A program made the position numbers and the translations under genes. From NCBI GenBank assembly GCA_963765995.1, contig CAVXYT010000023.1, positions 6,995 to 70,994 of the forward strand: DNA of 64,000 nt. Reading direction: 5' to 3'. Below, piece after piece: positions 5,016 through 41,351 of this stretch. The stretch comes from an uncultured Acidobacteriaceae bacterium (GTDB lineage Bacteria; Acidobacteriota; Terriglobia; Terriglobales; Acidobacteriaceae). The notes under the pieces were generated by a model. It was given only the letters and a program-made list of their open reading frames with translations, was not told the origin of the DNA and ran no database searches. The stretch's first letter is position 1, and every line of letters begins with the position of its first letter.

Positions 5016-5857
5016 ATTACCTCCCTTCTATTACGTTCTAGGAGCCTCGCAAGTTCCGCGCGGCCCCGGCTGATGCGGGATTTAACCGTCCCCTCGGGAA
5101 TACCCAAAACCTGGGCGATCTCCTTGTAGTCCAAATCCTGTAAATCTCTGAGAATAACGGCCTCACGCAGGTCTACGGAAACGCGGGCCAGGGCCTCTTG
5201 CACCATCTTTGCCAGTTCCTTTTTGGCCGCCGACTCGTGCGGCGAGACGCCGCGGGCCGTGAGCCGGTCGATAGGCTTGAGTTCTTCCGCCGACTCCCAG
5301 CCGTCATCCAGCGAAGAGGTAGCGCGCTGGTTGCGGGTCCGCCGGAAGTTGTCCACCAGCAGATTGCGGGTCAAACTCGTGATCCACACCTGCAGGGAGC
5401 CGCGCCCTATGTCGAAGCTGGCCAGATTCGAGTAAATCTTGAGGAATACATCCTGGGTCAGGTCCTCGGCGTCGGCCGGGTTGCCGGTAAAGCGGTAGCA
5501 GAGCCCGTAGACACGCCGGTGCTGCGCGCGAACCAGCTCAGCCCATGCGCTGGAATCGCCGTCCATGCAGCGGCTTACGACTTGGGACCAATCGATCTCC
5601 AGAGAAGCTGCCTCCCTGCACACCGGACGGGCGGCTGGCGCAACCGCCTGGACTCCCACGGGCAGGTCCTGGTCCGTGGGGTGGACCGCAAGGCTCGCCT
5701 GTAAACGGCCTTGCACAAGCTCTTTGCCGTCCGGAATCTGCCGCGGCCTTCGAGCGCCGGTCGCCAGGACTTCCAGGTTGCGCCGCAATGGCTTGGCCGG
5801 GATCCCCAGCGACAGGTCCTTGCCGCTGGGGTGGTTTGCCGGCCACACCAGTCCCAT
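5012..5857 (-). CDS. ECF RNA polymerase sigma factor with N-terminal extension
   Basis: Region 2 DAEDLTQDVFLKIY...WITSLTRNLLVDNFR and region 4 LDYKEIAQVLGIPEGTVKSRISRGR; start 5857 chosen from GGAG upstream (uncertain). Confidence 0.92.
   Translation of the reverse strand: MGLVWPANHPSGKDLSLGIPAKPLRRNLEVLATGARRPRQIPDGKELVQGRLQASLAVHPTDQDLPVGVQAVAPAARPVCREAASLEIDWSQVVSRCMDGDSSAWAELVRAQHRRVYGLCYRFTGNPADAEDLTQDVFLKIYSNLASFDIGRGSLQVWITSLTRNLLVDNFRRTRNQRATSSLDDGWESAEELKPIDRLTARGVSPHESAAKKELAKMVQEALARVSVDLREAVILRDLQDLDYKEIAQVLGIPEGTVKSRISRGRAELARLLERNRREVM
5650..5683 (-). repeat. 35-bp palindromic repeat family A, copy in sigma N-terminal extension
   Basis: CACCCCACGGACCAGGACCTGCCCGTGGGAGTCC on the minus strand. 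Confidence 0.8.
5799..5833 (-). repeat. 35-bp palindromic repeat family A, second copy in sigma N-terminal extension
   Basis: CACCCCAGCGGCAAGGACCTGTCGCTGGGGATCCC on the minus strand. Confidence 0.85.
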
Positions 5858-5896
5858 CCCGCTCCAGCTTAATGTACCCACGCAATGCATATTGCG

Positions 5897-6403
5897 CTAA
5901 TACGCAGGATTTTCCCTATTAGTTCCGTGCAGTTCCACCCAGGCTCCGACAACGCGCGCCGCTTCTTCTAGAAATGCGCGGTCCATCTCCGTGAAAGCTG
6001 CAGGGGTGTGGCTGTCGATATCGATTTCGCCTACGGCCTTGCCGTGTGCGTAGATGGGCACTACGATCTCGGATTTTGTCTTGATGGAGCAGGAAAGATA
6101 GCGCGGGTCCGCGTTCACATCGTCCACCACAACCGTCGCACCAGTGGCAACCGCTGCGCCGCAAATGCCTTCACTGGCGGGGATGCGCACGTGCGGGGTT
6201 GGCTCGCCATGGAACGCGCCCAGCACCAGCGTCTGGGCATCTCCGGGGTCGAGCATATAAAAGCCGGTCCAGTTGTAATGAGGGAGTTTGCCGGCGATGG
6301 CCTCGACGATGGATTTCTCCAGGACATCCAGCGACGGCGCAATCGCGGCCAGCTCGCGAATGCGAGCGAGCAGGGAGATCATCTGCGGTGTGAGGGCGGG
6401 CAT
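5897..6403 (-). CDS. GAF-domain protein (free Met-R-sulfoxide reductase/YebR-like)
   Basis: YNWTGFYML...GAFHG...IP..EGICG.A...SCS..TKSEIVVPI...GEIDIDS. Confidence 0.85.
   Translation of the reverse strand: MPALTPQMISLLARIRELAAIAPSLDVLEKSIVEAIAGKLPHYNWTGFYMLDPGDAQTLVLGAFHGEPTPHVRIPASEGICGAAVATGATVVVDDVNADPRYLSCSIKTKSEIVVPIYAHGKAVGEIDIDSHTPAAFTEMDRAFLEEAARVVGAWVELHGTNRENPAY
5901..5926 (-). promoter_or_regulatory. Candidate autoregulatory ECF promoter
   Basis: GGAAC-N17-CGTA on the minus strand just upstream of the sigma gene; adjacent palindrome CGCAAT-N4-ATTGCG at 5881-5896. Confidence 0.6.
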
Positions 6404-11746: not shown

Positions 11747-12790
11747 TCAGACGGTGAGGCCGGTTTGGAGGCCTTTGGGAGTGGCTAGGCCCCATGCCAT
11801 GGCGGGAGTGTTGTGGGCGAGTCCGAAGCGGCCGTCGGGGCCGAGGAGGATGATGCCGCCGTGGCCGCCGAGACGATTGTAGAGATACGAAATGGCTTCT
11901 CGGGCGGCGAGTTCGGGGGCGGTTCCGTTGGCGACGCGATCGGTGGCCCACTTGCCGAGGACCAGCTTCATGATGGGTTCGCCCCAGCCGGTGAGGGAGA
12001 CGGCGGCGGCGAGATTGTCGGCGTAGCAGCCGCAACCGATGAGAGAGGAGTCGCCGACGCGGCCGGGAGTTTTGTTGAGGGTGCCACCGGTGGAGGTGGC
12101 GGCGGCGAGGTTGCCGCGGGCATCGAGGGCGACGGCGCCGACGGTGTCATGACTACTGAAACGCGCGGGATCGTCAACGACAGCAGTCTCAGGGTCTTTG
12201 TCGTCATGGAGGACGGGCTGGAGGGGGGAATTCCACCCCACGGACGAAGACCTGTCCGTGGGGACCCCGGCTTCCTGGCCAGAGAAGGTGGCGTCGCGCA
12301 GGCCGGCGGCCTCGCGGTGCTTGGCATGAGTGAGGCGCTCACGCTCGCGGTCGAGGACCAGTTCGGCGTTGTCAATGAGGGCCATGCCGTGGGCCTGGGC
12401 AAATTGCTCGGCGCCAGCGCCGACGAAGTAGACGTGTTGGCTGTGTTCGAGGACCAGGCGGGCAGCCTGAATGGGGTTGTGGAGGCGCTCGACGCAGGCC
12501 ACGCCGCCAGCCTTCAAGCGGCCACCGTCCATGAGTAGGGCGTCTAGCTGGACGCGGCCGTCGGAGGTGAGAAAGCTGCCATGACCGGCATCGAAGGTGG
12601 GGTCGTCTTCGAGGACGGAGACGGCAGCTTCGACCGCATCGAGGGACGATCCTCCGCGAGAGAGGATGGCATAGCCGGTTTCCAGCGCGTTGCGGACACC
12701 GGCCTGGTGGGCGGCAGCGGCGTCAGCGGGGATGGCCCATGCGCCCCCGTGGACGAGCAGAGTAGGAGCGTGGTGGGCGGGAGAGGTCAC
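11747..12790 (-). CDS. iaaA: Isoaspartyl peptidase/L-asparaginase (Ntn hydrolase)
   Basis: LLVHGGA, LEDDPTFDAG.GS, autocleavage site HD|TVGAVALD, AATSTGG, GRVGDS, SLTGWGE; GTG start 6 nt after TACGAT. Confidence 0.93.
   Translation of the reverse strand: MTSPAHHAPTLLVHGGAWAIPADAAAAHQAGVRNALETGYAILSRGGSSLDAVEAAVSVLEDDPTFDAGHGSFLTSDGRVQLDALLMDGGRLKAGGVACVERLHNPIQAARLVLEHSQHVYFVGAGAEQFAQAHGMALIDNAELVLDRERERLTHAKHREAAGLRDATFSGQEAGVPTDRSSSVGWNSPLQPVLHDDKDPETAVVDDPARFSSHDTVGAVALDARGNLAAATSTGGTLNKTPGRVGDSSLIGCGCYADNLAAAVSLTGWGEPIMKLVLGKWATDRVANGTAPELAAREAISYLYNRLGGHGGIILLGPDGRFGLAHNTPAMAWGLATPKGLQTGLTV
12234..12268 (+). repeat. 35-bp palindromic repeat family A, inside iaaA
   Basis: CACCCCACGGACGAAGACCTGTCCGTGGGGACCCC, antisense to iaaA, in the linker before the cleavage site. 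Confidence 0.88.
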
Positions 12791-13395
12791 CGGAATATCG
12801 TAGAACATTTGGCGCAGGGGTGTGAAAACGCTCCATATTGGGAGTTGATTTGCTTCCGCTCGGACACCTTGTCAACAAAGAGAGGGTGGAGATTTTCGAT
12901 TAAGTTGTTGAATCAACTAGAGAACCGAGTGGTTATTTATGTTGCAGGAAATTTCCTGGAGATTCGTTAAGCTAAGAACAATCAACGAGGAAAAACGAGA
13001 AATGAGAGGACAGGGGAGCGAGGACGAGGCTTTCCTGGTATTTTTCGGACCACTTCCGCGGTACGCGAGCGTGGGGAGAGACTGAAAACACTTTCAGAGG
13101 CCGGATGGACGTTTTGTCTTATTGAAAAGCTGCGGATGGAAGTGTCGGAAGCAGCCAAAGGCAGACGGGCATCTGACAGGATCTGGAAGAGATCAAAACA
13201 TTTTCCGAGTTGACGCGGAGCTGCGAGAGCGTTGCAAGGCGGTTTGGAGTGAAGGAAGAAGCCGCTGAGTCTTCGCGGCGCCAGACGAGACCAATTCGGC
13301 GAATGCAGGGGTGGTTCCTACAAGGAATCACCCCTTTCTCTTTCTACGGAGAAGAGTGCAAGACCGTGTAATGGCGGGACGGGATTGGCGGAAAC

Positions 13396-13749
13396 ATGGT
13401 GTTGGCAAGGACGAGGCAGGCGGCCGGAGGCAGGCCGCATGGAACAGGGATGCAGGCGAAAACAGTCAGCCGCGGAAAAGCAAAGATGGCGGCGGAGGCG
13501 GACAAGGCCCTGGAAGACAACAGCAGCGAGATAACGAAAGGCTTGACCGAGAACGCGAAAAAGGGCAACGCAACGTGCACAAGGCTGCTACTTGCGCTCG
13601 CGGACGGGCTCATCAACTGCGAGAACGAAGTCGTAATGGAGCAGCTTTGCAGTTATGCCGAGAAGCTGGCTTTGGAGCCGGAATGGACTGGCGAAGAAGA
13701 CGATCTGGATGCGGAGACGAGCATCAGAGAACGCGAAGCGAAGGGTTGA
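13396..13749 (+). CDS. Small helical hypothetical protein at the head of the phage-like cluster (small terminase or regulator candidate)
   Basis: 117-aa charged helical ORF, co-oriented with and just upstream of the cluster; function is inferred from position only. Confidence 0.55.
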   Translation: MVLARTRQAAGGRPHGTGMQAKTVSRGKAKMAAEADKALEDNSSEITKGLTENAKKGNATCTRLLLALADGLINCENEVVMEQLCSYAEKLALEPEWTGEEDDLDAETSIREREAKG

Positions 13750-13822
13750 CGATTTGGCCCGCGTGAACAGTAACAGAGATGAACAAAGGCAGGTTCTTCC
13801 CCGGAAGAAAGAAGAGAGGCAG

Positions 13823-16800
13823 ATGAAGCTCACAAATCACAAGTGGTTGCGCGTCAACGGCTGGATTGGACTGTTGTTGATTGAGTTATGCCTGATGTTC
13901 CTGGGGTTAGCAAGCAAGGCCCCGGCGCAGGCGATCAGCACAACGACAGTTCAGGGAACGGTGTATCTGGCGAACGGTCAGCCTGCCACAGGAACACTCG
14001 TGGTGAGCTGGCCATCGTTTACCACGGCGAGCGGTCAGTTGGTGACGGCCGACAGCACGACGGTGACGATTGCGCCGGATGGATTTGTGAGCGTGAATCT
14101 GGCGCCTAATCTGGGGGCGACTCCGGCGGGGTTGTATTACACGGCGGTCTATTACATGAGCGATGGCTCGACTAACACCCAATACTGGGTGGTGCCGACG
14201 GGGACGCAAGCGACGCTGGGGCAGGTGCAGGCGCAGTTGATGCCGGCGACGCGGGCCGTGCAGGCAGTGAGCAAGGCCTATGTGGATCAGGCGATCGCGG
14301 AGCTAACGGGAAGCCTGCTGACGGGATCGGGAGGGACGCTGAGCGGGCCACTTACATTGTGCTGCGATCCGACGCTGCCGTTGCAAGCGGCGGACAAGCA
14401 CTATGTGGACGCAGCATCTGCCTTAGCCGTGCCATTGACAGGCGCGACAATGACCGGGCCGCTGACGAGCGTGAAATTAGGGGCTTTATACCAAGTGGAC
14501 CAGTTTTCCGGATCGGATTTCGGAGCCAAGCTGAGTGCGTGCCTGAGCGGGCTGAGCTCGACGAATGGCGGTACGTGCGATGCGCGCAATTTCACGGGCA
14601 CTCTGTCGATGGGATCGAACCTGACGATTTCGACGGCGAATGCGACGGTTCTGCTGCCTTGCGCGACGATTTCGACTGCCAATCAGTTGATGGTGGCGGC
14701 GGGCACGAGGAATGTGTCGCTGCGCGGGTGCGCATTGCGCGGGGCGAGCACGGCGAGCGGGAGCCAGGGCGGCACGGTGTTTCTGTATTCGGGAACGGGC
14801 GCGATGGTGCAGGTGGGAGACCCGACCTATGCGGCGGACACGATGGGTTTTCATCTGGACAATGTGGTGATTAACACTACGGCTTCGTCCAGCGGAGCGG
14901 CGCAAGGACTGGCGGCCTATCGCACGCAGGAGATGGACCTGGAAAGCTTGTATTTTCTTGGTAACTCGAATCAGACAGGAATGACACTGGACGGGACTGG
15001 GAATTATACCGGGGGAACGTTTCTCGACAACGAATTCAATGGCTACCAGACGGCGGTGAACGCCATCGGGCACCAGATATCGAATCCTGCCACGACAGAT
15101 TGGGTAAATGCGAGCACGTTTGTGCGGTTGCACATCGACTGCCCGACGAGCGGGGGAAGCCCGATCAGCGGGAGTTATGGGATCAACCTGCAACAGGGCG
15201 ATGGAAACACGTTCACGGGCGGAGACGTAGAGGGATGTTCGACGGCATTGCACCTGGGAGCGAACGCGCAAAACAACATGATCGTTGGACTGCGGAACGA
15301 AAACTCGACGAACCAGGTTGTGGCGGATGCGGGCAGTTCGTATAACAACTGGATGACCGGGGGAACGATGTTTACCGGTCAGTTGACCGACAACGGCACG
15401 CGCAACAGCTTCCTTGATGCATTTCACCGGAGTTTCAATGGCCTGAACGGCGATTGGTACGGAAGTCAGAAAGACGCGACGGTCACCAACCACTATCGCC
15501 TGGGGACAGGCGCAGGAAACGAGCGCGGCCTGCTGGACCGCTATCAAAGCGACTACGGCTACCGCTGGACGCTAGGCTTGAGCGACGCGACGGCCGGCGA
15601 GCAGTTTTACCAGATACTGGACGAACTGAACAATGTGTACCGGCTGTCGGTGGGCCAGAATAACAACGGGCAGTCGAGCACGAATAACCAGACGGTGATC
15701 AATGCGGCAGGAACCGGCGCTGTGGTGTTGAACGGATCGAACAACGCGGGGACCGGCGGAGTGGTGATCGGGTCGGGCGGCGCGAGCGAGACGACCGTGG
15801 CGACGATCGGCAACACCGGAAATGCGCAGTTCAACGGGACGCTGCAGGTGGGGGGCGCGTCAACTCTAGCGGGGACCGCAACAGTTAAGAACCAGGCCGA
15901 CGCGGAGATCGATGCGACGCTGTGGGCGGGACTGACGACGAGCCAGAAAGAGTCGTTCATTTACAAGGACTGGAACGGCAACAGCCAGTGGTACATGGTG
16001 AAGGACGGGAGCAATAACTGGGCGCTGAATTCGGCCACAGGCGGATTGGACAGTTTCAAGGCTTACCAGAGCGCCAACAGCGGCGACACGTACATCAACA
16101 CCTCGAACGCTTCCGGGGTCGTGCGCATCAACTACGAGACTGGATCAGGAACTCAGCTAAAAGTATATGGGGGGAACAGCAGCACTCTTTATGCCTCCTT
16201 CACGGGCGCGGCATTGATTCAATTTCCAGGGCTTGCGGCGAGCAGCGGCCACAACTGCCTACAGATCGATAACTCGGGCTATGTCACGAATACGGGGACG
16301 GCCTGCGGCAGCGGAAGCACCAGCGGGACGGTCAACACGGGGACCAGCGGGCAGATTGCCTATTACAGCGGAGCAGGCACAACCCTATCCGGCACAAACA
16401 CGGTTTCCGTAACGGCCGGAGGGACCGGGGCTTCCACGGCTTCAAGCGCGCTGGCGAACCTGGGCGGAGCATCGCTCGCAGGGGCGTCTTTTACGGGACC
16501 GGTGAGTGTTTCGACAACACTGTCTGTAGCAAACAACGCGAGCATCGGGCCGCGGTACGATGTGACGAACTCCGCGTTTGGCGCAGTAGGCAACGGCTCG
16601 ACAGATGACACGGCGGCGATTCAGGCAGCTTTTGACGCTTGTTATCACGGCGGTGTTGCTCCCTACGGCGGCGTGGTTGAGTTTCCCGGTCCTCACAGCT
16701 TTGTGGTCTCCTCCACGATTAACGCGCACGATTCCTGCCAGGTGGAGGGGGTTGTGGGAAGCTCGACCGTGGCCAACGCGCCGGTTCGGGTTCTATGGAA

Positions 16801-19720
16801 GGGCGCGGCAGCGGGAACAGTTTCGACGATTACCGGATACAGCGTAGCAGCGGGCGGCATTGCAACCTTCACAGCCGCAAACAGCCTGACCGCCGGGCAG
16901 TACGTCGATATTGAGGGATTGACTACTACGACAGGCACGACAATGAACCGGCTCATCGCGCCGGTTCTGGCTGCCGGACTATCCACGACGCAGTTTGAAA
17001 TACAGGCGAACGCATCGGCGACGACAACGACATCGGATTCCGGCACTGCAACGACCGTCAACGTGCTTCTTGTCTTTGATTCCAGTGCCAGATACGAACA
17101 GTCCCTCAAGAATATGGAGTTTGCCCTGGCATCCGGCGCGACTACGGGGTCGCTGCAAGTAGACGTGTACTACGGTAGCCGCGTTGATACCGGAACCCAC
17201 GTTGAGAATACCTGGGCGGAGCAAGCCACGATGTATGGTTACTACTTTTCCGGCGGGGGCATCAACGTAGACTTCGACAAAGGCTGGCGGTGCGACTCTG
17301 CCGGGATATCCTGCATCTATTGGCGGCTGTCAGGAGGGGATTCCTTTGGAATAGCCAACGGAACGGCAGACAACAGTCAAGGCGGCACGATGACGCCGAG
17401 CGGCGGCCTGTTAATGGTGGATGGCGCTCCCTGCGTCAACACCTCGTTCCTAAATTTCGAGTCACGGAATGTGCTGTTTGAAGTGAACTCTACGATTACC
17501 TCTGGCCTGGGCATTTTTACGCTGTATGATTGCCCATCAGCCGCACAGAATTTTAACCTGAACCTGGAAAGCACGAGAGAAAGCATAGCTGCGGCATCCA
17601 CCTCCGGTTTCAATTTCCCGGCTATCGTCATGTCTCCGCCGAGTGATTCAAAGCTCACCTTGAACATGGCCGATGGTGGATTCTACAATGGCACCGCGCC
17701 CAACACAACCACAAGGTTTGTTGGGATTCCGGCATTGATGAGAGACGATATAGGAGACGGCCCATTCCTGAGTTATGCTCCTTCGTTCAATAGCCTTGCG
17801 GCTGCTAATAATGCTCCGGAACCGATCTCTCTGATAGGCGATGTTGAGTTCAGCCAACTCTGGCAGCACGGGGTTGAGGCATCGGCATTTCTATTCTCAG
17901 ATACAGCGTACGCCGCGCTTCCCAACGGGACAACGCTGTACTCCGGCCAGGTGCTCGCGCCCCCAGCCTACTGGAACGGGGCCAACGGGAAGCGGTATGC
18001 TCTCGACGTTGTATACCAAACCGGCACGACCGGTTCCCCAAACGCCGGAGCTACCACCTGCACGGATACCGGCTATACAGGAACCATGACCTGCTCCAGC
18101 GCCACGGACTTGTCAGCCGGAAGCGTACTCACGCTAGGGAGCGAAAGCCAAATTACAGTTGCATGGGTGGACAACACGAATCCTTCGGCTGTTATCGTGC
18201 ATAACACAACTTCTTTGCCGCACACAACCAATTCGTCTGCTACTGCGTTGTCCTTCACCGCGCCGGTGCTGGGACCAGAGATTCAAATGCCGACGAAATC
18301 CGCAGCCGCGCCTTCTGCTTTGGCATGGTCGCAGGGAGACTTCGAGCAGAACTCCAGCGCGGTGGCGAATGGTATCTGCGGATGGGTCAATGTGTCAGCC
18401 GGTACGCCGGGAACCTGGACGGCCATTCCGTGCGCCAATAGCAGCGGGCAGATTACAGCGTCTCAGATCGCGCCCGCGTCTCTTCAGGGAACCGATTCAA
18501 AGATTCTTACAGCCGGGACAGTATCGGGCACGGGAGCAGCTCTCTGCACAGACAGCAATGGAGGCGCAACTACTTCCGGCTGCTCCGGGGGCTCCGGGGC
18601 ACCTGCCAATACACCGTCCTGGCTTCAGTATCTTGGCAGCGGAGCGGATGGCTCGTATGAATACAGTTCTACCGGAAGCTGCTCGACGAGTCCGACACAT
18701 TGCGTGACAAGCTGCACTTCGTCAGCGCCGTGTTCGATGGCCGGCGGCGAAATGATCACTACTAATTTTCAAGTGGATTCCGGGGCGTACATCTATGACA
18801 ACATTGCCAGCACGGCAGGGCTAACCATTCATTCACAGGGAGCTTGCAACATCTACGGAACGATTCTGGTCAACGGAGCGAAGAGCACCTGGCCTGCCGG
18901 AAATAAAGGCGTCGGGGGCGGTCCTTCCGGCGGCTCAGGTGGAGGCACCGCGGCGGGTACGGCAGGAACCGCGACTTATCCTACGATTGCCAACACAGGT
19001 TTAGGGAACACATCTGGCGGCACAGCCGGGGCTGCAAGTGGCGGCAACGGTGGAAACGGGACCGCGCCGAGCGCAAATTTTCAAAGATCGGTCACGAACG
19101 CCGGAATTGGCGGAATGGATGGGATGTATCTCACTGGAGCAGCCGGGGTGCAGGGCGGAAGCACTGGCGGCGCGGGCGGTGAAGGTGGTCAAGGACTGGT
19201 TATGATGTGTGCCACGATGAACGGCACAGGCGGCGTCATCGACGCAAGCGGCGCTTATGGGATGCCCCCAGCCGCAAACTCGACTGGGGCAGGAAGCGGC
19301 GGCGGCGGCGGAGTTGTGCTTCTATCCTCGCAAGCTGCTGTTACAAACTGGCCCACAGTTTATGTTGCGGGCGGACCTGGGGGATTGGTCACCGTGCCGG
19401 AAGCCCTGGCAACAGGCGGCGCCTGCACCTCTCAGCCGAAGGCCACTCTCGGCGTTACCAGCGGGGCGTTCAGCGGAACCTGCACGGTGGCGCAAGCGGG
19501 GGCCGGTTGCGGCACGGGCGCAGGCATTACATGGAATATTGCCGGTGGCGGCGGAACGGCGGGAACGGCTGTCATCAACCCAACTTGGAGCAGCGGCACA
19601 CTGGCAAGCTGCACGGTAACGCCGGGTACAAGCACAGGCTATACGGCAGCGACTTACACGACTGCGGGAAAGGGCGGCGACGGCGCGACAGGCTGGTACG
19701 CGGAGTTTGCGGGGTGGTAG
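13823..19720 (+). CDS. Giant tail fibre/tailspike-like protein with two predicted beta-helix regions, Gly-rich C-terminus and N-terminal signal-like peptide
   Basis: About 1965 aa from ATG 13823; fibre-type SKAYVD and AADKHYVD motifs; pectate_lyase_3-type FGAVGNGSTDDTAAIQAAFD; Asn/Gly/Thr-rich repeats; GG-rich tail. Confidence 0.7.
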   Translation: MKLTNHKWLRVNGWIGLLLIELCLMFLGLASKAPAQAISTTTVQGTVYLANGQPATGTLVVSWPSFTTASGQLVTADSTTVTIAPDGFVSVNLAPNLGATPAGLYYTAVYYMSDGSTNTQYWVVPTGTQATLGQVQAQLMPATRAVQAVSKAYVDQAIAELTGSLLTGSGGTLSGPLTLCCDPTLPLQAADKHYVDAASALAVPLTGATMTGPLTSVKLGALYQVDQFSGSDFGAKLSACLSGLSSTNGGTCDARNFTGTLSMGSNLTISTANATVLLPCATISTANQLMVAAGTRNVSLRGCALRGASTASGSQGGTVFLYSGTGAMVQVGDPTYAADTMGFHLDNVVINTTASSSGAAQGLAAYRTQEMDLESLYFLGNSNQTGMTLDGTGNYTGGTFLDNEFNGYQTAVNAIGHQISNPATTDWVNASTFVRLHIDCPTSGGSPISGSYGINLQQGDGNTFTGGDVEGCSTALHLGANAQNNMIVGLRNENSTNQVVADAGSSYNNWMTGGTMFTGQLTDNGTRNSFLDAFHRSFNGLNGDWYGSQKDATVTNHYRLGTGAGNERGLLDRYQSDYGYRWTLGLSDATAGEQFYQILDELNNVYRLSVGQNNNGQSSTNNQTVINAAGTGAVVLNGSNNAGTGGVVIGSGGASETTVATIGNTGNAQFNGTLQVGGASTLAGTATVKNQADAEIDATLWAGLTTSQKESFIYKDWNGNSQWYMVKDGSNNWALNSATGGLDSFKAYQSANSGDTYINTSNASGVVRINYETGSGTQLKVYGGNSSTLYASFTGAALIQFPGLAASSGHNCLQIDNSGYVTNTGTACGSGSTSGTVNTGTSGQIAYYSGAGTTLSGTNTVSVTAGGTGASTASSALANLGGASLAGASFTGPVSVSTTLSVANNASIGPRYDVTNSAFGAVGNGSTDDTAAIQAAFDACYHGGVAPYGGVVEFPGPHSFVVSSTINAHDSCQVEGVVGSSTVANAPVRVLWKGAAAGTVSTITGYSVAAGGIATFTAANSLTAGQYVDIEGLTTTTGTTMNRLIAPVLAAGLSTTQFEIQANASATTTTSDSGTATTVNVLLVFDSSARYEQSLKNMEFALASGATTGSLQVDVYYGSRVDTGTHVENTWAEQATMYGYYFSGGGINVDFDKGWRCDSAGISCIYWRLSGGDSFGIANGTADNSQGGTMTPSGGLLMVDGAPCVNTSFLNFESRNVLFEVNSTITSGLGIFTLYDCPSAAQNFNLNLESTRESIAAASTSGFNFPAIVMSPPSDSKLTLNMADGGFYNGTAPNTTTRFVGIPALMRDDIGDGPFLSYAPSFNSLAAANNAPEPISLIGDVEFSQLWQHGVEASAFLFSDTAYAALPNGTTLYSGQVLAPPAYWNGANGKRYALDVVYQTGTTGSPNAGATTCTDTGYTGTMTCSSATDLSAGSVLTLGSESQITVAWVDNTNPSAVIVHNTTSLPHTTNSSATALSFTAPVLGPEIQMPTKSAAAPSALAWSQGDFEQNSSAVANGICGWVNVSAGTPGTWTAIPCANSSGQITASQIAPASLQGTDSKILTAGTVSGTGAALCTDSNGGATTSGCSGGSGAPANTPSWLQYLGSGADGSYEYSSTGSCSTSPTHCVTSCTSSAPCSMAGGEMITTNFQVDSGAYIYDNIASTAGLTIHSQGACNIYGTILVNGAKSTWPAGNKGVGGGPSGGSGGGTAAGTAGTATYPTIANTGLGNTSGGTAGAASGGNGGNGTAPSANFQRSVTNAGIGGMDGMYLTGAAGVQGGSTGGAGGEGGQGLVMMCATMNGTGGVIDASGAYGMPPAANSTGAGSGGGGGVVLLSSQAAVTNWPTVYVAGGPGGLVTVPEALATGGACTSQPKATLGVTSGAFSGTCTVAQAGAGCGTGAGITWNIAGGGGTAGTAVINPTWSSGTLASCTVTPGTSTGYTAATYTTAGKGGDGATGWYAEFAGW

Positions 19721-27753: not shown

Positions 27754-27756
27754 AGG

Positions 27757-28191: not shown

Positions 28192-28196
28192 GAGCA

Positions 28197-28372
28197 GGGA
28201 TCAGGGGTCAGGGATCAGGGGTCTTGATGCGTGATCAATGGCCAAAACCGTGTTTCCGACCCAATCGCGGCTTTTTGTCAACGAACATTGACCCGGAAAG
28301 GTGAGTGGGAAAGCAAGGGAAGTTGATCAAGGAGAGGTTTTCTGATCCCTGATCCCTGACCCCTGATTCCTG
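28197..28372. repeat. Inverted heptamer-repeat arms before the tail genes
   Basis: GGGATCA GGGGTCA GGGATCA at 28197-28217; TGATCCC TGATCCC TGACCCC TGATTCC at 28343-28370. Confidence 0.85.
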
Positions 28373-28379
28373 TCTTCTT

Positions 28380-28865
28380 ATGCAAAATGCGAAAGATTCG
28401 TTTTATATGGCACTGCGCACGCGGCTGGCGGCGATCAATCCAGAGCGGACGATTCTGCTGCGCGGAGCGGTAAGGCCAGGGATTCTGGCGGAGGAAGCCG
28501 AGGCTCCCTTCAGCCAGCTTCCCAACGATGTGTTTGTTCTGCGCTGGCTGGGCCTGGGCGTCGATTTTGATCTCGGGTCCATGATGGTGGCCGAGCAGTG
28601 CGAGGTGATCTATCAGACCTGCGGAACGCAAAGCTTCAGCGGGTTGGACCGCGGCCGGTCGCTGAGCGAGTTGGACGAGGAACTTGTGGCGATGATGCAG
28701 CCTTTCTACACCGCCAAGCTTAACTTCACGGCAACGCCGCCGGCGGCGATGCTGACGAAGGTGTTCTGGGATGAGCCGGAGTTTGCGCCGATCGTGGTCC
28801 AACGGGACCAGCTGAGCCGTTCCGCAAAAGTGATGGTTTACAGCTACCAGGAGCAGGGGGAGTAA
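28380..28865 (+). CDS. Putative tail terminator/completion protein
   Basis: 161 aa, N-terminal helix SFYMALRTRLAA then alpha/beta pattern; position between neck and tube genes. Confidence 0.45.
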   Translation: MQNAKDSFYMALRTRLAAINPERTILLRGAVRPGILAEEAEAPFSQLPNDVFVLRWLGLGVDFDLGSMMVAEQCEVIYQTCGTQSFSGLDRGRSLSELDEELVAMMQPFYTAKLNFTATPPAAMLTKVFWDEPEFAPIVVQRDQLSRSAKVMVYSYQEQGE

Positions 28866-29840
28866 ATGGCGACGACTTGGTTTTCGGCTCCCGCACCGGT
28901 GGCGCGGCGGGTTCGAGGGTATTTTGCGCCGGTGAACCGGACGGTGCAGACGCCAGTGCTCTTCGACCCGGCGGAGCAGGGCAGTTTCAGCCTGAGCGCT
29001 CCGCCGGCTCCATGGATCAGCCTGGGTTGGATTCAACAGTTCACACGCAAGCAGGGAAGCAAGACCGCCGCTGTGTTGACGGGCATTCCCGCTGGAACGC
29101 TGGAGCAGGTGCGCGAGACGCTTGAGGCGCAGGTGAGCTTTGAATTTCTGAGCTGGACCAAACTGACCATGGCTCTGGCGACGGGCTCGCAACACATGAA
29201 CCTGCTGGCTCCCGCAAGCGGAGCGACTCTGGCGGCGGATGGAGCAACGGCTGCCGCGGCAGTTACGGTGCTGAGCGGATCGACGGCTACATCCATCGTG
29301 CTGGCCTCGGCCGATGCGGCTACTTTTTCTGCTGGTTCGATCATTGCGCTGGACGCGGATTACACGGGGCAGACCGGATATGTGGGCGCGCCTGTATCTG
29401 GAGCGTATGTGCGCACTGCATTAACGGATGTAAATTACATCCGGCGCGTGACCTTTAACGTCGCATTGGTGTCTGCGGTGACTTCCACCGGCTTAACACT
29501 TGCCGAGCCGTTACCGGGCGGAGCTCCTGCGGCCGGTTCCAGGTTGCAGGCAGTCACAGGATTTGTGGATCGCGAGGGCGGCTGTTTCTATCAAGAGTGG
29601 TCGGCGCTGTTTGTGATGGAGGGCAGCCAGGGGGAACGGATCTTCTTCCACTATCCACGGCTGCAGACCATGGCCAGCGCACAAGAAACCGCATTGCCGT
29701 TGGACGGCAAGCAGAAGGCCGGGCTGGCGCGGGTGTTGCTCAAAGGCCAGTTTCTGGCGCTGCCCGTGACCGATCCTCTGGATGGGGAGCGAGTGGTCTG
29801 TTACCGGAGTTTCCTGCCCGCGGCACACGCTCTGGTGTAG
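28866..29840 (+). CDS. Putative tail tube protein with inserted domain
   Basis: Beta-rich N- and C-terminal parts (WISLGWIQQF, QVSFEFL, RIFFHYPRL) around an Ala/Thr/Ser-rich insert; synteny. Confidence 0.5.
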   Translation: MATTWFSAPAPVARRVRGYFAPVNRTVQTPVLFDPAEQGSFSLSAPPAPWISLGWIQQFTRKQGSKTAAVLTGIPAGTLEQVRETLEAQVSFEFLSWTKLTMALATGSQHMNLLAPASGATLAADGATAAAAVTVLSGSTATSIVLASADAATFSAGSIIALDADYTGQTGYVGAPVSGAYVRTALTDVNYIRRVTFNVALVSAVTSTGLTLAEPLPGGAPAAGSRLQAVTGFVDREGGCFYQEWSALFVMEGSQGERIFFHYPRLQTMASAQETALPLDGKQKAGLARVLLKGQFLALPVTDPLDGERVVCYRSFLPAAHALV

Positions 29841-29890
29841 GCGAGTCGGCAAGTCAGCACAACAGCAAGTCAGCAGGGCAGAGAGTCACG

Positions 29891-32206
29891 ATGAAGATCA
29901 CGATCAACGGGCAAGACTACACGGCCGCGCTCGATGCAGTGCGGCCGTTGACGATCGAGCGAAAGCTGAACGCGCCCTCCCTGTGTCAACTGTGTCTGAG
30001 CCTGCCAACCAACGGAAGTTTGACGTCTCCCCTGCGCTATCAGTCTCTCGCCGTAGTGGGAGACGACGGAACATATTATTTTACGGGGTACATCGCGGTA
30101 AGTCCTCTGCCGGAATATGCAGGCTTTGCGATGGAGGGCCCGCGCTATCGGATTGCGATTCAGGCTTTGAGCGACGAGCTTTTGCTGGACCAAAACCTGA
30201 TGCCTCCCAGTACTGGCGCAACGGGAGAAAGCGCGGGGACGCTGATGACGGCGCTGGTAGCCCACGCGGGAGGCGCCGGGCTATCGACTCTGGGGCTTTC
30301 GCTCAGCGCGGCGGTGAGCAACTTTGCCCCCGACAAGGGCGCGCCGTGGAGCAAGAGCGCCGGACAGGTGGCAAACATGGCGCGGGCCGCGTATCGCGCG
30401 GTCAATGGAGCGCTCACAGCCTCCTCTGTGCCCGGCACGGTGCATCCACTGAATGAGACGGACGGCAGCTTGAACCTGGCAACCCTGGCCTTCACAGCCA
30501 GCGTCAAACGCGCTCTGGCGAACGATGTGACGGTGTGCGGAGAGCATGAGCCGGTTGCTTATGTTACCGAATACTTTCTGGGTGACGGAGTAACAACACA
30601 GTTTTATCTGGCGCAAGATCCGTTCTTTCCCGCCACGTCCAAGTCCATCATCATCCGCGAACTCTTCAACGAATCGCAGATCAACCAGTGCGTGTGGGGA
30701 GTTACAGGCGGGGCAGGTTACCTTACGCTGGGAGCCGGCGGGCTGGCGATAAACGGCGGCAATGGAATCGACGGGGACACGCTGCTCGCCTGGCTTGACC
30801 CTGTGGAGATGGGCGGAACTCTGCTGCTGGAGGCTGTGGGAGTAACTCTTGCACTGGGCAGCACAGGGGCATTGGCCGGCTTCTTTGTCGGCATGGACAG
30901 GCAGACTACGTGCGTCGCGGGCTTTCAGGTGACAGCGCAGCCAGGCACCGGGGCAGTCACATTGCAGCCACTCATCAATGGCAGTCCGGTGGGAACGACT
31001 TATGCGATCAATCCAGCCTATCAATACACACTGCGCGTCCGGGTGCATTGCCCAGAGAACGAACGGGCGCTGGCGATCTATCGCTCCTTTGGAGATAGCG
31101 GGGCAATTACCTCCGGCGGCGAGTTGAATGCGGCTCCGGGCATGGTGCAGATGGAGATCCAGCAGTTTGTTGACGGAGTGGGAGGGATGCCGGTAACTCT
31201 GTATGACGGAGCTATCTCCAACCTTCCCGCGGCTTGCAATGTGGTGGCGGCGAGCAGCATCAATCTGATTGGAACCATGCGTGCGCTCAACTTGACCAAT
31301 CTGGGCTCGGGCTGGGTGGTGAGCACACCGCCAAGCGGCGGTCCCTACACTCGGCGAGTTGGCACGACGGCCGAGGCGGCCGAGTGCTATCTGGAGCGCA
31401 CGGGCAAGGTGGTATTTTATACCGGGTATACGCCGGTAGCGGGCGAGCAGATTGCGGTGAGTTACCGCACTGTGGGCAGGGCAGTAGGTCGAGCCGTCAA
31501 CACCGCCAGCCAGGCGGCGTTGGCCGCGGCGGGAATGCCGACCGAGGCCGCGTGGATCGGCTCGGTGACCAATCCCCCGGCGCGCAGTTCCGCGGACTGC
31601 CGCAATGCGGCTCTGGTGATGGAGCAGGCGGCGGCCAGCGTGAGCGCGCTGTGGAGCGGCACTTACAAGGGGAACCGGTTGAGCTTTGCCGCCGATGTCT
31701 GGCCGGGCGATGCGCTGTTGCTGAACGCGCCTTCAACCAGCCTGGACGCGCAGGTGGTGGTGCGGACTGTCAAGGTGAGTTACAGCGCGAGCTATCCCGA
31801 TCTGGTGGAGTATGCCATTGTCTTCGCCAACGACTGGGCCGACGATCTGGCGATCAAGACCAGCGCGACGGTACCCGCTGATGCGTGGCTTCCGGCGCCG
31901 ATTGCGCCGACCGTGCTGGCGAATCTGAACAGCCTCACGGTGACTACGCTGAATGGAACCACGTTGACAATCAATGCCGGTGTTACTCCGCCCACAGGCG
32001 GAGGATTCGAGGTGCGGTTGCGAGACTTTGACTTCATGGCGGGCACGGACCCGGCGCTGGTGATGCGGTCGACAACTCCGGCCATGACTTTCTCTCGCAT
32101 CAGCGCCAACGACCGGTTCTATATCCGGATGTACGACGGCTCGACGCCGCCAAACTACTCGGAGTTTTCAACGGCACTATTCATCAACCTGCCGCTTGGA
32201 TCGTAA
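29891..32206 (+). CDS. Tail tip/baseplate hub-like protein with C-terminal beta domains
   Basis: MKITINGQDY...LTIERKLNAPSLCQL hub-like start, FLGDGVTTQFYL, 771 aa beta-rich; last large gene of the cluster. Confidence 0.6.
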   Translation: MKITINGQDYTAALDAVRPLTIERKLNAPSLCQLCLSLPTNGSLTSPLRYQSLAVVGDDGTYYFTGYIAVSPLPEYAGFAMEGPRYRIAIQALSDELLLDQNLMPPSTGATGESAGTLMTALVAHAGGAGLSTLGLSLSAAVSNFAPDKGAPWSKSAGQVANMARAAYRAVNGALTASSVPGTVHPLNETDGSLNLATLAFTASVKRALANDVTVCGEHEPVAYVTEYFLGDGVTTQFYLAQDPFFPATSKSIIIRELFNESQINQCVWGVTGGAGYLTLGAGGLAINGGNGIDGDTLLAWLDPVEMGGTLLLEAVGVTLALGSTGALAGFFVGMDRQTTCVAGFQVTAQPGTGAVTLQPLINGSPVGTTYAINPAYQYTLRVRVHCPENERALAIYRSFGDSGAITSGGELNAAPGMVQMEIQQFVDGVGGMPVTLYDGAISNLPAACNVVAASSINLIGTMRALNLTNLGSGWVVSTPPSGGPYTRRVGTTAEAAECYLERTGKVVFYTGYTPVAGEQIAVSYRTVGRAVGRAVNTASQAALAAAGMPTEAAWIGSVTNPPARSSADCRNAALVMEQAAASVSALWSGTYKGNRLSFAADVWPGDALLLNAPSTSLDAQVVVRTVKVSYSASYPDLVEYAIVFANDWADDLAIKTSATVPADAWLPAPIAPTVLANLNSLTVTTLNGTTLTINAGVTPPTGGGFEVRLRDFDFMAGTDPALVMRSTTPAMTFSRISANDRFYIRMYDGSTPPNYSEFSTALFINLPLGS

Positions 32207-38229: not shown

Positions 38230-38526
38230 TCAGACGGTGTAGGCGCCGATGCGGACCTCGCGGCTGGTGAGCTGGTCGCAGGCGCGGTCCAGGGTTTCGT
38301 ATTCCTGGTCGTGGTCCTTGCGGAAGGCGCGGAAGGCCTCTTCGCTGGCCCAGCGGTCGATGGTCAGGTAGCTGCCGGGGATGTAGGCGTCGCGCAGCAA
38401 CTCGGTGCCCTGGTAACCGGGCGAGGTGCGGAACAATTGCGCCCACGAGCCCTCGGACGAATAGGCGGCCTCAAAGCCGGCAATCTTCTCTTCGGCAACC
38501 TCGAACTGCCAAACAACGACGAACAT
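38230..38526 (-). CDS. Antibiotic biosynthesis monooxygenase (ABM) family protein
   Basis: MFVVVWQFEV...FE.AY...PGYQGTELLRD...YLTIDRWASEEAF. Confidence 0.8.
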   Translation of the reverse strand: MFVVVWQFEVAEEKIAGFEAAYSSEGSWAQLFRTSPGYQGTELLRDAYIPGSYLTIDRWASEEAFRAFRKDHDQEYETLDRACDQLTSREVRIGAYTV

Positions 38527-38582
38527 GCGCGTTTCCAATCTTGTCTTTATGGTAGCGCAGCGGGAGTGCGAAGGCGAAGGCC

Positions 38583-41351
38583 TCAGATCTTTTGTAAATT
38601 GGCGAACTTTTCCATCAGCTTTTTCACTCCGTGGCGGGAGAAGAGGATAGTGAGCTTGGCGCCTTCGCCGTCGCCTTCGCGCAGGAGGATGGCGCCTTCT
38701 CCGTACTTCGCATGGCGGACGTGCTGACCTTATTTCAGGCCGGTCGCGCCTTTTGGCTGCGGAAGATCGATGGCCGGACGGGCGAGAGTGCCGGGCTTGA
38801 TAGCTCCGCCCTTACCACCAAAGAAGCGTGCGATGTTGTCGATGGAATCAGGCTGTGCCTCCGCGCCTCCGTCTTTCGCCGTCTCCGCGCTTTTGCGCGA
38901 GGGGCTCGCTTCGTGGCTTGCCGCTGGGGCTTTGGCGGTCATCCAGGAGGCGACAAAGGGCTTGGAGGAGGAGCCATTCGCGCCCGCGCCGTAGCTCTTA
39001 TTTCCGCTGGGCGTGAATCCCTTGGCGGGTGAACGCGGGGCTTCCTGGTTTTCGTCTTCGTAGTTGTAGTGACGGTCGGCGAAGTCGCCGGAGTGAGCGT
39101 GGCGGCGGGATGCGCCCGATCGGGAGCCTGCGCTGGTATAGCCGGGAGTGGACCACACTGGGCTGCGTCCGCCGAGGTTTTCGATCAACCGGTTGGGGAC
39201 TTCTTCGAGGAAGCGGGAGGGGATGCTCATCTCCGGGGCGTCGTTTCCGTAGCGGCGGCGGTAGTGGGCGCGGGTGAGGATGAGCGAGTTCATGGCGCGG
39301 GTCATGCCGACGTAGCAGAGACGGCGCTCCTCTTCTAACTCATCTGGATTGTTGAGGGTGCGGGAGTGGGGAAACAGGCCCTCCTCCAGTCCTGCAAGAA
39401 AGACCAGCGAAAACTCCAGGCCCTTGGCGGCGTGCAGGGTCATCAGCGTGACGCGGGCGTCGGGGTCGAACTGGTCGGTGTCGGAGGCCAGAGCGGCGTG
39501 GTCGAGGAACTCGGCCAGAGTCTCGCCGCGGGCTTCGGCGTCGTGCGCGGCGTTGGCCAGCTCCTTCAGGTTTTCAATGCGGCTGAAGGCCTCCGGCGAG
39601 CCTTCGGTCTCCAGAGCTTTGATGTAGCCGGTGCGGTCGAGGAGGAAGCGGATCAGCTCTGGCAGCGTGGCTGCGTCGCCTGGAGTGCGAAAACCCACGA
39701 CCTGTTCTTCGCCGATGGTTGCGGAATCCTCGCTTTCTCTCTTTGAACTGACGGAGTCGGCCGTGGACGCCCCGAACCCGAAGCCGGTGTCCGCGTCCTC
39801 GCCGGATTCCGCGCCGGCGGCCACGTCAGCCGAGAGCTTGCCGGCGAAGTCGGGATCCATCATCGCCTGAGCGTCCAGAATGAGCTGTCTGAAAGACTCA
39901 AGAGCCATCAGCGCCCGCGTGGGGATCAGCCGGTTCTGGATAGCGGCTCCCAGGGCCTCCCAGGTGGAGGCGCCGGTCTCCAGAGCCAGCCGCTCCAGGG
40001 TTTCCAGCGTGGTTTTGCCGATGCCGCGGGCCGGAGTGTTGATGACCCTCTGCAAGGCCATCGAATCGTGGGGGTTGCGGATCAGCCTCAGGTAAGCGAG
40101 CAGGTCCTTGATCTCGGCTCTCTCGTAGAAGCTGAAACCGCCGACCATGGTGTAGGAGATGTTGTAGCGGCGCAGCGCCTCCTCCACCAGCCGGGACTGA
40201 GCATTGGTCCGGTACAACACCGCGCAGTGGGCTTTTTCAGTGGTCTCTCCTCCGGCCGTCTCCGCCTGGCGCAGGAAAGCCTGAATGCGGTCGGCGATAA
40301 ACAGCGCCTCGTTTTCTCCGTCGGGGGCTTCATAGTAGCCGATCAGCGAGCCGCCCTGGCGATCGGTCCACAGCTTCTTGCCCTTGCGCTTGAGGTTGTT
40401 GGCTACCACCGCTCCCGCCGCTTCCAAAATCATCTGCGTGGAGCGGTAGTTCTGCTCCAGGCGCACGATGCGGGCGCTGGGAAAGTCCTTTTCAAACTCC
40501 AGAATGTTGCGGATGTCGGCGCCGCGCCACGAATAAATGCTCTGATCCTCGTCTCCCACCGCGCAGACGTTCTGATGCTCGCCGGCCAGCAGCTTCATCA
40601 GCTCGTACTGAGGCCGGTTGGTGTCCTGGTACTCGTCCACCAACAAATATCTGTACCTGCGCTGGTAGCGCTCTCTCACCTCGGAGGAAACCTTCAGCAG
40701 ACGCACCGCCTCCAGCAGCAGGTCATCGAAATCCAGCGCGTTACACTTGCGCAGTTCGGCCTTGTAGCCCTGGTAGATGTGGGCGATGCGCTCGCTGTTG
40801 GCGTCTTTTGAGGCGAGGTAATACTCCTGGGGATCGACCATGTGGCTCTTGGCCCAGGAGATGCGGCCCAGAACCGCGCGGGGGGTGAGCTGCTTGGTGT
40901 CCAGGCCCATGCGCTTCATGATCTGCTTGACGACAGCCAACTGGTCGTTCTCATCGTAGATGGCAAAGGAGCGGGTCAGGCCGTCACCGGGGTCCCCAGC
41001 GACAGATCCACGTCGCTGGGGTGAATCGTTGCCGACTTTGAGGGCCTCAATGTCACGCCGCAAAATGCGCACGCAGAACGAGTGAAAGGTACAGAGCAGC
41101 GGCCGGGCCAGCGAGGAGTGGCCCAGCAGCCGGTCGACGCGTTCTCCCATCTCGCTGGCGGCCTTGTTGGTGAAGGTGACGGCCAGAATCGAGTCCGGCG
41201 CGACGCCTTTCTCGCGAATTAGCCAGGCAATCCGGCTGGTGATGACGCGGGTCTTCCCCGAGCCGGCCCCGGCCAGAATCAGCAGCGGGCCCTCGGTGGC
41301 CTCCACGGCGGCGCGCTGTTCGGGATTCAGGTTGGAGAGAGGCGGCTGCAA
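38583..41351 (-). CDS. uvrD: UvrD/PcrA helicase; C-terminal Tudor domain separated by an in-frame TAA at 38730-38732
   Basis: LNPEQ, LAGAGSGKTRV, AVTFTNKAA, LVDEYQDTN, VGDEDQSIYSWRGA, LEQNYRST, MTLHAAKGLEF, EEERRLCYVGMTRA; after the stop the frame continues GQHVRHAKYGEG...KKLMEKFANLQKI*. Confidence 0.93.
40989..41023 (-). repeat. 35-bp palindromic repeat family A, inside uvrD
   Basis: CACCCCAGCGACGTGGATCTGTCGCTGGGGACCCC, translated in another frame as SPQRRGSVAGDP. Confidence 0.88.

Follow-up and report, generated by a model that had tools for sequence, protein, structure and literature searches.

The stretch analysed here, a 64-kb segment of contig CAVXYT010000023.1 from an uncultured Acidobacteriaceae bacterium (hereafter the window; G+C content 59.6%), carries five copies of a short hairpin-forming palindrome that we propose below to be a transposable element. 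Two copies lie in the first part of an open reading frame (ORF) for an extracytoplasmic function (ECF) sigma factor, and one each in the genes for an isoaspartyl peptidase/L-asparaginase (iaaA), a DUF3037 protein and a UvrD/PcrA-type helicase. A covariance model built on 85 distinct family members and run over both strands of the window matched exactly these five, with scores of 44-68 bits; the weaker matches, all at or below 17 bits, were the opposite strands of the same palindromes. A profile search returned the same five copies and none besides, and a direct scan for perfect hairpins (CCCC-N6-loop-N6'-GGGG, with stems of 8-10 bp) recovered four of them. A preliminary description of the window had reported the five copies at these places together with the peptides that they encode, and it was correct on both counts.

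The copies differ in how well they are preserved. On the reverse strand, copy 1 (5645-5686, 44.1 bits) is degenerate, with a 3' end of GGGAGTCC instead of GGGGACCCC, and copy 2 (5795-5836, 56.7 bits) has an AGCG/CGCT stem with one mismatch beside the loop; both would fall in the 5' leader of the sigma factor gene. Copy 3 (12231-12272, core 12234-12268, forward strand, 68.2 bits) has a perfect 10-bp stem with ACGG/CCGT at its middle and lies antisense in iaaA, while copy 4 (23048-23089, core 23051-23085, forward strand, 58.9 bits; perfect stem, GCGG/CCGC) and copy 5 (40985-41026, core 40989-41023, reverse strand, 55.6 bits; perfect stem, AGCG/CGCT) lie sense in the DUF3037 gene and in uvrD, respectively. 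Folded as DNA, copies 2 to 5 reach -11.7 to -14.1 kcal/mol (z = -2.6 to -3.9; copy 3, -12.8 kcal/mol, z = -3.3), whereas copy 1 folds no better than its shuffles (z = -0.6).

The element itself is 37 bp long, 5'-C CACCCC NNNN AC GAAGACCT GT N'N'N'N' GGGG ACCCC G-3', with ends CCACCCC and GGGGACCCCG (alignment A1), and a single strand of it can pair with itself as a 10-bp stem capped by a loop of 8 nt. The arms, 10 nt each, form inverted repeats, and a protein could not be encoded in 37 bp. Outside a 35-nt core only three positions are conserved: C at -1 (81%), G at +1 (96%) and G at +2 (79%). Neither end carries a GTAG or CGTC tetranucleotide in the alignment, CGTC being found only internally, on the complementary strand at the boundary of loop and stem. 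The unit had been described as 35 bp; its footprint is really 42 nt, made up of the 37-bp element and a 5-bp flanking direct repeat, and this length is constant in three genes and as the period of tandem arrays (six units in locus L082 and pairs in L005, L030 and L072). One further pair, in L078, is spaced at 41 nt.

Loop and termini are conserved in sequence, but in the four middle pairs of the stem complementarity alone is conserved. Across the 85 distinct copies 93.9% of stem cells are paired as against 82.7% after shuffling (alignment A1), and 96 cells have changed on both sides of the stem, compared with 37 +/- 3.8 in the shuffles. The covariation score of 0.282 (0.090 shuffled) was reached in none of 500 shuffles, and sliding the stem partners by one to three columns makes the signal collapse, with about 40% paired. 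At the five stem pairs that were free of the search pattern, 85% of cells are Watson-Crick, against 58% in shuffles with a maximum of 63.5%. The two central pairs interchange among C-G, G-C, A-T and T-A, and the pair adjoining the CCCC/GGGG clamp is an A.C mismatch in 32 of the 85 copies. The compensatory changes that had been noticed among the window copies (ACGG/CCGT, GCGG/CCGC, AGCG/CGCT) are thus real and extend to the family as a whole. A covarying stem combined with a conserved loop and conserved ends suggests a hairpin that is maintained as a structure, the loop and ends being read as sequence.

In three window genes the element forms an exact, in-frame insertion of 14 residues that is missing from orthologues 93-98% identical, and peptide-free orthologues are abundant. 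The helicase gene (38730-41351, reverse strand; Pfam UvrD-helicase, E = 5e-95, plus UvrD_C) hosts copy 5, which encodes SPQRRGSVAGDP (residues 110-121), and the exact 14 amino acids are absent from 116 of 120 UvrD orthologues, including the 93-95% identical P0002-P0004. At the DNA level the 93% identical relative L118 lacks the 42 nt. The insertion point falls between PcrA residues 107 and 108, where none of the solved PcrA, UvrD, Rep and UvrD1 structures has an insertion. The site is filled in four non-sister lineages sharing about 89-90% identity with one another, and the nearest neighbours of each (95-98% identical) are empty. The three filled alleles that could be read as DNA differ in their stems (AGCG/CGCT, AAGG/CCTT and ATCG/CGCT), the first two by a fully compensated change. 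Such reuse of one site could reflect a strong target preference with repeated insertion, or an old polymorphism spread by recombination.

In iaaA (11747-12808, reverse strand; Asparaginase_2, E = 3.8e-95) copy 3 encodes GVPTDRSSSVGW, residues 181-192. L122, a 98% relative, has the 42 nt and L120, a 94% relative, lacks them, and the protein is accordingly 353 amino acids long when filled and 339 in the 94% relative and dozens of others. The insertion sits inside a 46-residue linker (173-218) between the alpha-subunit core and the nucleophile threonine; alignments with solved homologues cover only residues 15-172 and 219-349 and leave the linker unmatched in every case. This agrees with the suggestion in the preliminary description that the copy occupies the linker ahead of the autocleavage site. 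At least eight lineages are filled at this same site and in the same orientation. The linker of other relatives (P0160-P0186, P0240) carries different inserts, namely a tandem 14-amino-acid repeat, EKGTGSSEEGKSFS, in up to about seven copies, and a second alternative segment, GTGFSPYI...RALAPEG; judged from these alignments, the linker appears to be a hot spot for repeat-derived sequence.

Copy 4 encodes R-HPADKDPSAGTP-F, residues 182-195 of the DUF3037 protein (22505-23380, forward strand; PF11236 at residues 12-120), whose orthologues are 278 amino acids long when empty and 292 when filled. Relative L127, 98% identical and colinear over 20.8 kb, differs from the window by a single large indel, the missing 23048-23089, and the flanks of its empty site are identical to those of the window (GGGGTG|ATCCGC). 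Further empty alleles were found in soil metagenome contigs (runs X7 and X2). Among 80 metagenome orthologues, 54 were empty, 17 carried one unit, one carried two tandem units, five carried a nested sister element (see below) and one was partly deleted, two not being anchorable. The insertion is common to many lineages, its flanks are scattered around the target GTGAT, and orthologous copies decay in place, as seen in the DNA of L143, L180 and L171 and in the protein as HLANKNVTMDAQ; in L135 a copy shows a paired C-G to A-T change in place. The insertion is clearly old. An AlphaFold2 model of this host (42-sequence alignment) had a mean pLDDT (predicted local distance difference test) score of 38, too low for placing the insertion on the surface; placement in structure was therefore taken from the alignments to solved PcrA and asparaginase structures. 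The three insertions bear out the earlier proposal of a mobile hairpin that is tolerated in protein loops and supplies new peptide sequence. Neither of the two findings that the preliminary description had named as refuting it came true, since orthologues free of the peptide are plentiful and stems covary throughout the family.

The two remaining copies tell a different story. All five had been described as lying inside protein-coding genes, which holds for UvrD, iaaA and DUF3037 and not for the sigma factor. The long sigma ORF (292 codons, beginning at 5890) contains the copies in codons 19-31 and 69-79, and its Pfam domains (Sigma70_r2, residues 119-186; r4_2, residues 229-280) begin only at residue 102-119. 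Compared with the 94% relative L120, in which both copies are conserved and the alignment is ungapped, the first 100 codons hold 13 substitutions spread 3/5/5 over the codon positions (4 synonymous, 9 non-synonymous). The remaining 192 codons hold 29, of which 24 are at third positions (25 synonymous, 2 non-synonymous), and the contrast is significant (Fisher p = 1.1e-4). The neutral pattern argues that the N-terminal extension is untranslated, leaving both copies in the 5' leader; on this substitution pattern translation likely starts at GTG 5623 or ATG 5566, for a probable coding sequence of 5012-5623 (reverse strand) with copy 1 about 25-80 nt upstream of the start. The ORF is overlong because the element has no stops in any frame, and so the observation that all five copies lie in open frames, though correct, says little, as ORFs cross the element regardless. 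The gene heads an operon of sigma (5012-5890), an anti-sigma factor (zf-HC2; 4140-5015) and a LiaF-like protein (3334-4152). Just upstream of the long ORF lies an ECF-type promoter-like motif, GGAAC-N17-CGTA (5926-5901, reverse strand); by comparison with the known ECF promoter consensus, copies 1 and 2 would then be part of a 5' untranslated region.

The sequences flanking the element bear on how it inserts. Within copies, left and right flanks correlate along one diagonal only, over five positions (-6 to -2 against +2 to +6), where per-position matching reaches 0.60 compared with 0.25 expected; at -7/+1 and -1/+7 there is no excess. At least four of the five positions match in 29 of 124 singleton copies (4.5 expected; maximum of 10 over 300 permutations), and the repeat is perfect in nine of the 124, all nine with G as the first base. 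Because the matching covers exactly five positions and the footprint is constant, we read the 42 nt as a 37-bp element plus a 5-bp duplication. Other splits (35+7, 36+6, 38+4, or a circularly permuted 42-nt unit) were rejected, since the excess is confined to those five positions, and also because in the nine perfect cases -6 equals +2 (G) while -7/+1 and -1/+7 differ. Single alleles illustrate the pattern: the UvrD allele of L123 reads GCGAA-C-core-G-GCGAA where empty orthologues have GGC GAA once, the iaaA alleles of L125 and L126 carry perfect repeats of GTGTC and GCTTC, and copy 2 of the window (GCAAA/GCCAA) matches at four of five positions. Apart from the leading G, all that the three gene targets have in common is a G-rich run upstream (GGGGTG^, GGGGGGAA^ and GGCGGCG^), three sites being too few for calling a motif. 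Around the intergenic filled/empty pairs (L118 7996-8037, L120 8998-9039 and L171 5511-5552) orthologous sequence has diverged, or been rearranged, too far to give a clean junction.

The element appears well suited to coding DNA. Its consensus unit is open in all six frames, and 127 of 134 cores are free of stops in all six, compared with 36% of composition-matched shuffles. Because 42 bp is a multiple of three and brings no stop in any frame, a gene that receives a copy gains 14 residues instead of breaking. Of the family's copies, 33% lie at least 100 codons deep in an ORF as against 47% of random positions in the same loci (about 70% of the random rate), and 61% against 75% lie at least 50 codons deep; the depletion from coding sequence is mild, unlike that of the classical repetitive extragenic palindromes (REPs). 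About half of the copies are outside long ORFs, and copies occur in both orientations, in all frames and in hundreds of unrelated contexts. Among 35 copies with a confident coding frame, 12, 11, 6 and 4 use the four hydrophilic frames rich in Pro, Gly, Ser and Asp (HPxDxDLSxGTP, GVPxDRSSSxGW, PGSPxTGLxxWGG and PPxRRxPVAGDP), and the two remaining frames, TPATKTCRRGP and RGPQRQVFVAGV, are used once each. Hosts elsewhere that were confirmed by Pfam are CoaE, with six tandem units, an Lhr helicase, and an ABC exporter whose two units separate the membrane domain from the ATPase domain. Copies are also carried by two UvrA loci, UvrC, GH67, GH3 and a ValRS-like class I tRNA synthetase. DNA-repair proteins are conspicuous in this set (the two UvrA loci, UvrC, UvrD and Lhr; L085, L093, L012, L033 and the window uvrD), and intragenic REPs of other phyla have likewise been noted in DNA-repair proteins (Di Nocera et al., 2013; PMC3733652).

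Beyond the window, the family seems to be confined largely to one bacterial family. A scan of a species collection (one genome per species) by an exact pattern that specified only the termini, some of the loop and a single stem pair gave at least 134 copies in at least 117 genome stretches. The matches listed were nearly all from Acidobacteriaceae (Terracidiphilus, Tunturibacter/Tunturiibacter, Silvibacterium and metagenome-assembled genomes), and the closest proteins to the window genes are labelled Terracidiphilus, which makes this genus the probable source of the window. Of the 80 listed contigs that bear the element, L023 (CAWEZY010000004.1) alone is labelled Gammaproteobacteria, and this label probably reflects an error in binning an Acidobacteriaceae contig or in naming the bin. 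Where soil and peat metagenomes contain the window sequence, their contigs are up to about 20 times deeper over the element, and many contigs leave the window sequence exactly at 23049-23052 and 23085-23086, which indicates other copies in other contexts. A blastn search of a plasmid collection with the 42-nt unit gave no match, no Rfam family matched the 64 kb at gathering score, and a full-text literature search found no account of this element family.

Copies are also found nested in other repeats. Roughly 10% of the singletons occupy the tip of a longer perfect palindrome (at least 8 bp), compared with 1.3% expected; 17 copies interrupt another hairpin repeat, TCCCAGGTCTCAAAATCGAGA^CCTGGGGCACCC, and eight lie at the midpoint of a palindromic element, some 170 bp long, that has its own terminal inverted repeats. 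A sister family with the same termini has a 36-nt core, CACCCCAGCGAGCAAAGAYCGCTCGCCGGGGACCCC, laid out as CACCCC-AGCGAG-CAAAGAYCG-CTCGCC-GGGGACCCC, and a 45-nt footprint where nested. It was located in L139-L141, L154 and L174 (at about 3577-3612), L006 (7068), L021 (4028) and L088 (6373), and in some lineages it is nested in the DUF3037 copy, where it encodes ...PNEQRSLVGDPES.... That the two families share termini while their interiors differ suggests that the mobilising activity recognises the termini together with the fold. Acidobacteriaceae carry other hairpin repeat families as well (TCCCAGGTCTCAAAATCGAGACCTGGGGCACCC; TTCCCACCCTTTCGCC...GGCGAAAGGATGGGGCAC; and the ~170-bp palindromic element, with ends CTAGAGCGGTTCTCCAATTCACG), and the 42-nt unit is often in their apical loops (L012, L029, L041, L042, L054, L060, L063 and others; L118 7950-8060).

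Taken together, these observations lead us to propose, with a probability of roughly 0.7, that the family is a non-autonomous transposable element of Acidobacteriaceae that is mobilised in trans through a 5-bp staggered cut; our confidence in any particular class of enzyme is much lower. Such elements would be very small relatives in kind of miniature inverted-repeat transposable elements (MITEs), REPs and Rickettsia palindromic elements (RPEs). Integration would duplicate 5 bp of target with G as the first base, so that each insertion would add 37 + 5 = 42 bp, or 14 codons, and within a gene would neither shift nor truncate the frame. Selection may then retain insertions in linkers and loops, favouring the four hydrophilic frames, while the 5-bp flanking repeats could permit unequal exchange, giving rise to the tandem 42-nt arrays (14-residue repeats in protein) and to occasional loss. 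In the window this would account for the three protein insertions (UvrD, the iaaA linker and DUF3037) and for two older copies in the sigma leader. We infer that the spread is by transposition in trans, that the enzyme recognises the folded hairpin, and that frame use and location reflect purifying selection. The covarying stem favours an enzyme that recognises single-stranded DNA by its fold, in the manner of HUH/Y1 systems or of integron attC sites; the target duplication speaks against HUH/Y1 'peel and paste' and REP/RAYT-type mechanisms (RAYT, REP-associated tyrosine transposase), which leave none. A more specific version, in which a minimal 37-bp hairpin recognised by structure has become adapted to genes and is moved by an enzyme class new to such elements, combining hairpin recognition with a staggered 5-bp cut, is put forward only tentatively.

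Several points weigh against this proposal. Only about one copy in four shows the flanking repeat clearly, and in the window insertions the flanks match poorly (two of five positions in UvrD, two of five in iaaA, one of five in DUF3037), so that these insertions would have to be old or to have arrived with a filled allele through homologous recombination. The left flank of the window iaaA copy, GAAGC, equals the repeat seen in a different lineage. Mosaicism is evident in the DUF3037 gene, where the window (22505-23380) and L127 (10001-10837) differ by 38 mismatches in 876 nt (4.3%), clustered at nt 98-135 and 803-813, while the surrounding 20 kb is about 2% divergent, which suggests recombination at the locus. 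Both the iaaA flank match and the DUF3037 mosaicism are consistent with recombination without being proof of it; from these sequence patterns, filled and empty alleles probably also move by homologous recombination, and such movement weakens the claim that the window insertions are recent transpositions. No insertion or excision event was caught directly. Neither the window nor about 1 Mb of loci yielded a transposase or an autonomous partner, although the search was weak: tblastn with E. coli RayT and IS200 TnpA queries gave nothing below E = 1. The window and the loci likewise showed no cognate insertion sequence sharing the ends of the element. In L044, where two inverted copies lie 2.6 kb apart, the ORFs between them look ordinary, and no transposase-like ORF was recognised on reading their translations, without a family search. 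To our knowledge, recognition of a specific structure together with target duplication is typical of no well-studied class of bacterial transposase.

The size of 35-38 nt, the GC-rich hairpin with its covarying stem, the conserved loop and ends and the structure-based recognition would all suit a REP/REPIN-type element moved by a RAYT or TIRYT HUH tyrosine transposase, which acts on single-stranded hairpins and inserts and excises seamlessly. Intragenic REPs are documented in UvrD, UvrA and other repair genes, and a clade of TIRYT Y1 transposases specific to Acidobacteria, with long inverted repeats on either side, has been reported (PMC3733652). The cleanest filled/empty pair, that of the window and L127 at the DUF3037 site, shows neither duplication nor microhomology at the junction, which fits seamless movement, and the recurrent filling of identical sites would fit target-specific insertion or precise excision. 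However, the 5-bp flanking repeat is significant, and perfect in the best-preserved alleles; neither end bears the GTAG or CGTC expected of such elements, the TIRYT motif GGGGWSAS is unmatched by GGGGACCC, copies are not mainly extragenic, and no Y1 transposase gene was seen beside copies, although this last test is weak. We regard this explanation as unlikely. In another view the copies are old and immobile, their alleles being ancient polymorphisms shuffled by homologous recombination and the hairpin being kept for host use, for example as a protein-binding site or mRNA structure. The DUF3037 mosaic between 98% relatives, the resemblance of the window iaaA flank to the allele of another lineage, the filling of the same sites in several lineages, the conservation of both leader copies in the 94% relative and the paired change in place in L135 can all be read in its favour. 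Yet orthologous DUF3037 copies decay in place (L143, L180, L171), which speaks against function there, and the occurrence in both orientations, all frames and hundreds of unrelated contexts, the very many copies indicated by metagenome depth and the nesting of copies in other repeats and in each other, which requires insertion activity, make this view improbable too, slightly more so than movement by a tyrosine transposase.

The combination of a covarying stem with a flanking duplication could also be reconciled through an RNA intermediate, a hairpin RNA being reverse-transcribed and integrated at staggered nicks by target priming. That combination is the sole support for such a route, which we consider very improbable, given that no reverse transcriptase was seen near copies, that there are no poly-A or other 3' tails and no 5' truncations, that both ends are sharply defined and that the duplication is fixed at 5 bp. 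Finally, the recurrence of the peptide HPxDxDLSxGTP across many proteins might suggest a selected 14-residue protein module instead of a DNA element, but the same DNA is read in at least four frames and on both strands to give unrelated peptides, about half of the copies lie outside long ORFs, and conservation tracks base pairing, not codons; this diversity of frame and orientation effectively refutes the idea. Transposition in trans with a 5-bp target duplication thus remains the reading that we prefer.

How does such an element compare with known systems? MITEs such as Correia of Neisseria and Nezha of cyanobacteria have terminal inverted repeats, can form hairpins, duplicate their target sites, are dispersed and nested, and occasionally insert in frame. 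The present element resembles them in being small and non-coding, with terminal inverted repeats, a fixed-length target duplication, nesting and in-frame coding insertions. It differs in its size (37 bp, as against the usual 50-500 bp), in having inner arm positions that covary, as befits a hairpin recognised by structure, rather than being conserved in sequence like transposase-binding repeats, and in the lack of a known parent insertion sequence. Rickettsia palindromic elements, reportedly described by Ogata and colleagues in 2000, are said to be palindromic repeats that insert in frame and add a peptide while the protein is kept, and to occur in non-coding DNA also. The comparison with them, made in the preliminary description, is apt, and the phenomenon is not new in kind: here too the insertion is in frame and the host protein is kept, sequences flanking the element are under purifying selection, and empty orthologues exist. 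In contrast to RPE-1, which is about 100-150 bp long and found in Rickettsia (Alphaproteobacteria), the present element is 37 bp with a 42-bp footprint and belongs to Acidobacteriota, which sets it apart by description, and it shows a 5-bp flanking direct repeat and 42-nt tandem arrays.

REPs are GC-rich hairpins of 20-40 bp, a minority of which lie in ORFs, where as dimers they add 20-30 amino acids; the intragenic ones are notable in UvrA/B/C/D, PolA and RecBCD, and examples that insert in frame come from Opitutus, Thauera and Rickettsia (Di Nocera et al., 2013; PMC3733652). The same study noted that N-terminal 'intragenic' REPs are often truly extragenic, and the sigma copies described here would be just such a case. 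As a many-copy imperfect palindrome with a 35-nt core and a 10-bp stem, the element falls in the REP size class, but it lacks the GTAG/CGTC head, occurs as single units and not inverted dimers, and is flanked by a 5-bp repeat; no REPtron is known for it. Whereas REPs are predominantly extragenic and downstream of genes, its share within ORFs is far larger (the 33% against 47% at 100 codons given above). The REPINs of REPIN/RAYT systems are likewise short hairpin repeats, which maintain and copy themselves in a bacterial lineage and pass for the most part vertically through a family of bacteria (Bertels and Rainey, 2011; PMC3116915). They are, however, inverted REP doublets outside genes tied to a single-copy flanked RAYT gene (PMC3116915), none of which was seen here. 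What differs from the known cases is the tiny size, the 14-codon footprint made up of element and duplication, the openness in six frames, the near-random occupancy of coding sequence, and the pairing of a covarying hairpin with a target duplication.

If our proposal is right, the element ranks among the smallest known units of transposition and clearly illustrates how host genes can absorb mobile DNA. With a length that, together with the duplication, is a multiple of three, and with no stops, the element can colonise roughly 88% of the bacterial genome that is normally closed to repeats. Its hosts, the Acidobacteriaceae, are an abundant and little-studied soil group, and in their housekeeping and DNA-repair proteins it would generate length polymorphism as well as new loop and repeat sequence. 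If the hairpin is indeed recognised by its structure, essential proteins (UvrA, UvrC, UvrD, CoaE, tRNA synthetase) across a major soil phylum would continually receive loop insertions and tandem repeats of 14 residues. The flanking-repeat signature and the covarying hairpin point to a mobilisation mechanism that is still to be found. On the practical side, gene callers are misled where ORFs cross copies, producing false N-terminal extensions such as that of the sigma factor, and presence or absence of a copy, which differs between 98% identical genomes, may serve as a strain-level marker.

The surroundings of copy 4 deserve a brief description. Judged by its gene content, the block at 13300-32200, which is syntenic in relatives 93-98% identical, looks phage-derived. 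It contains a 2021-residue ORF without a Pfam match (13655-19720), a terminase-like ORF (19794-21401; Terminase_6C at cutoff) and a phage portal gene (23576-24913; E = 1e-52), and between the last two lie a HipA_2-like kinase gene (21607-22479) and the DUF3037 gene. Further along, after an ORF ending at 27014, there is an 18-nt inverted repeat at 27029-27075 (CAGTGAACAGTGGTCAGT / ACTGACCGCTGTTCACTG; 94% complementary, with an 11-nt spacer) that is unrelated to the element.

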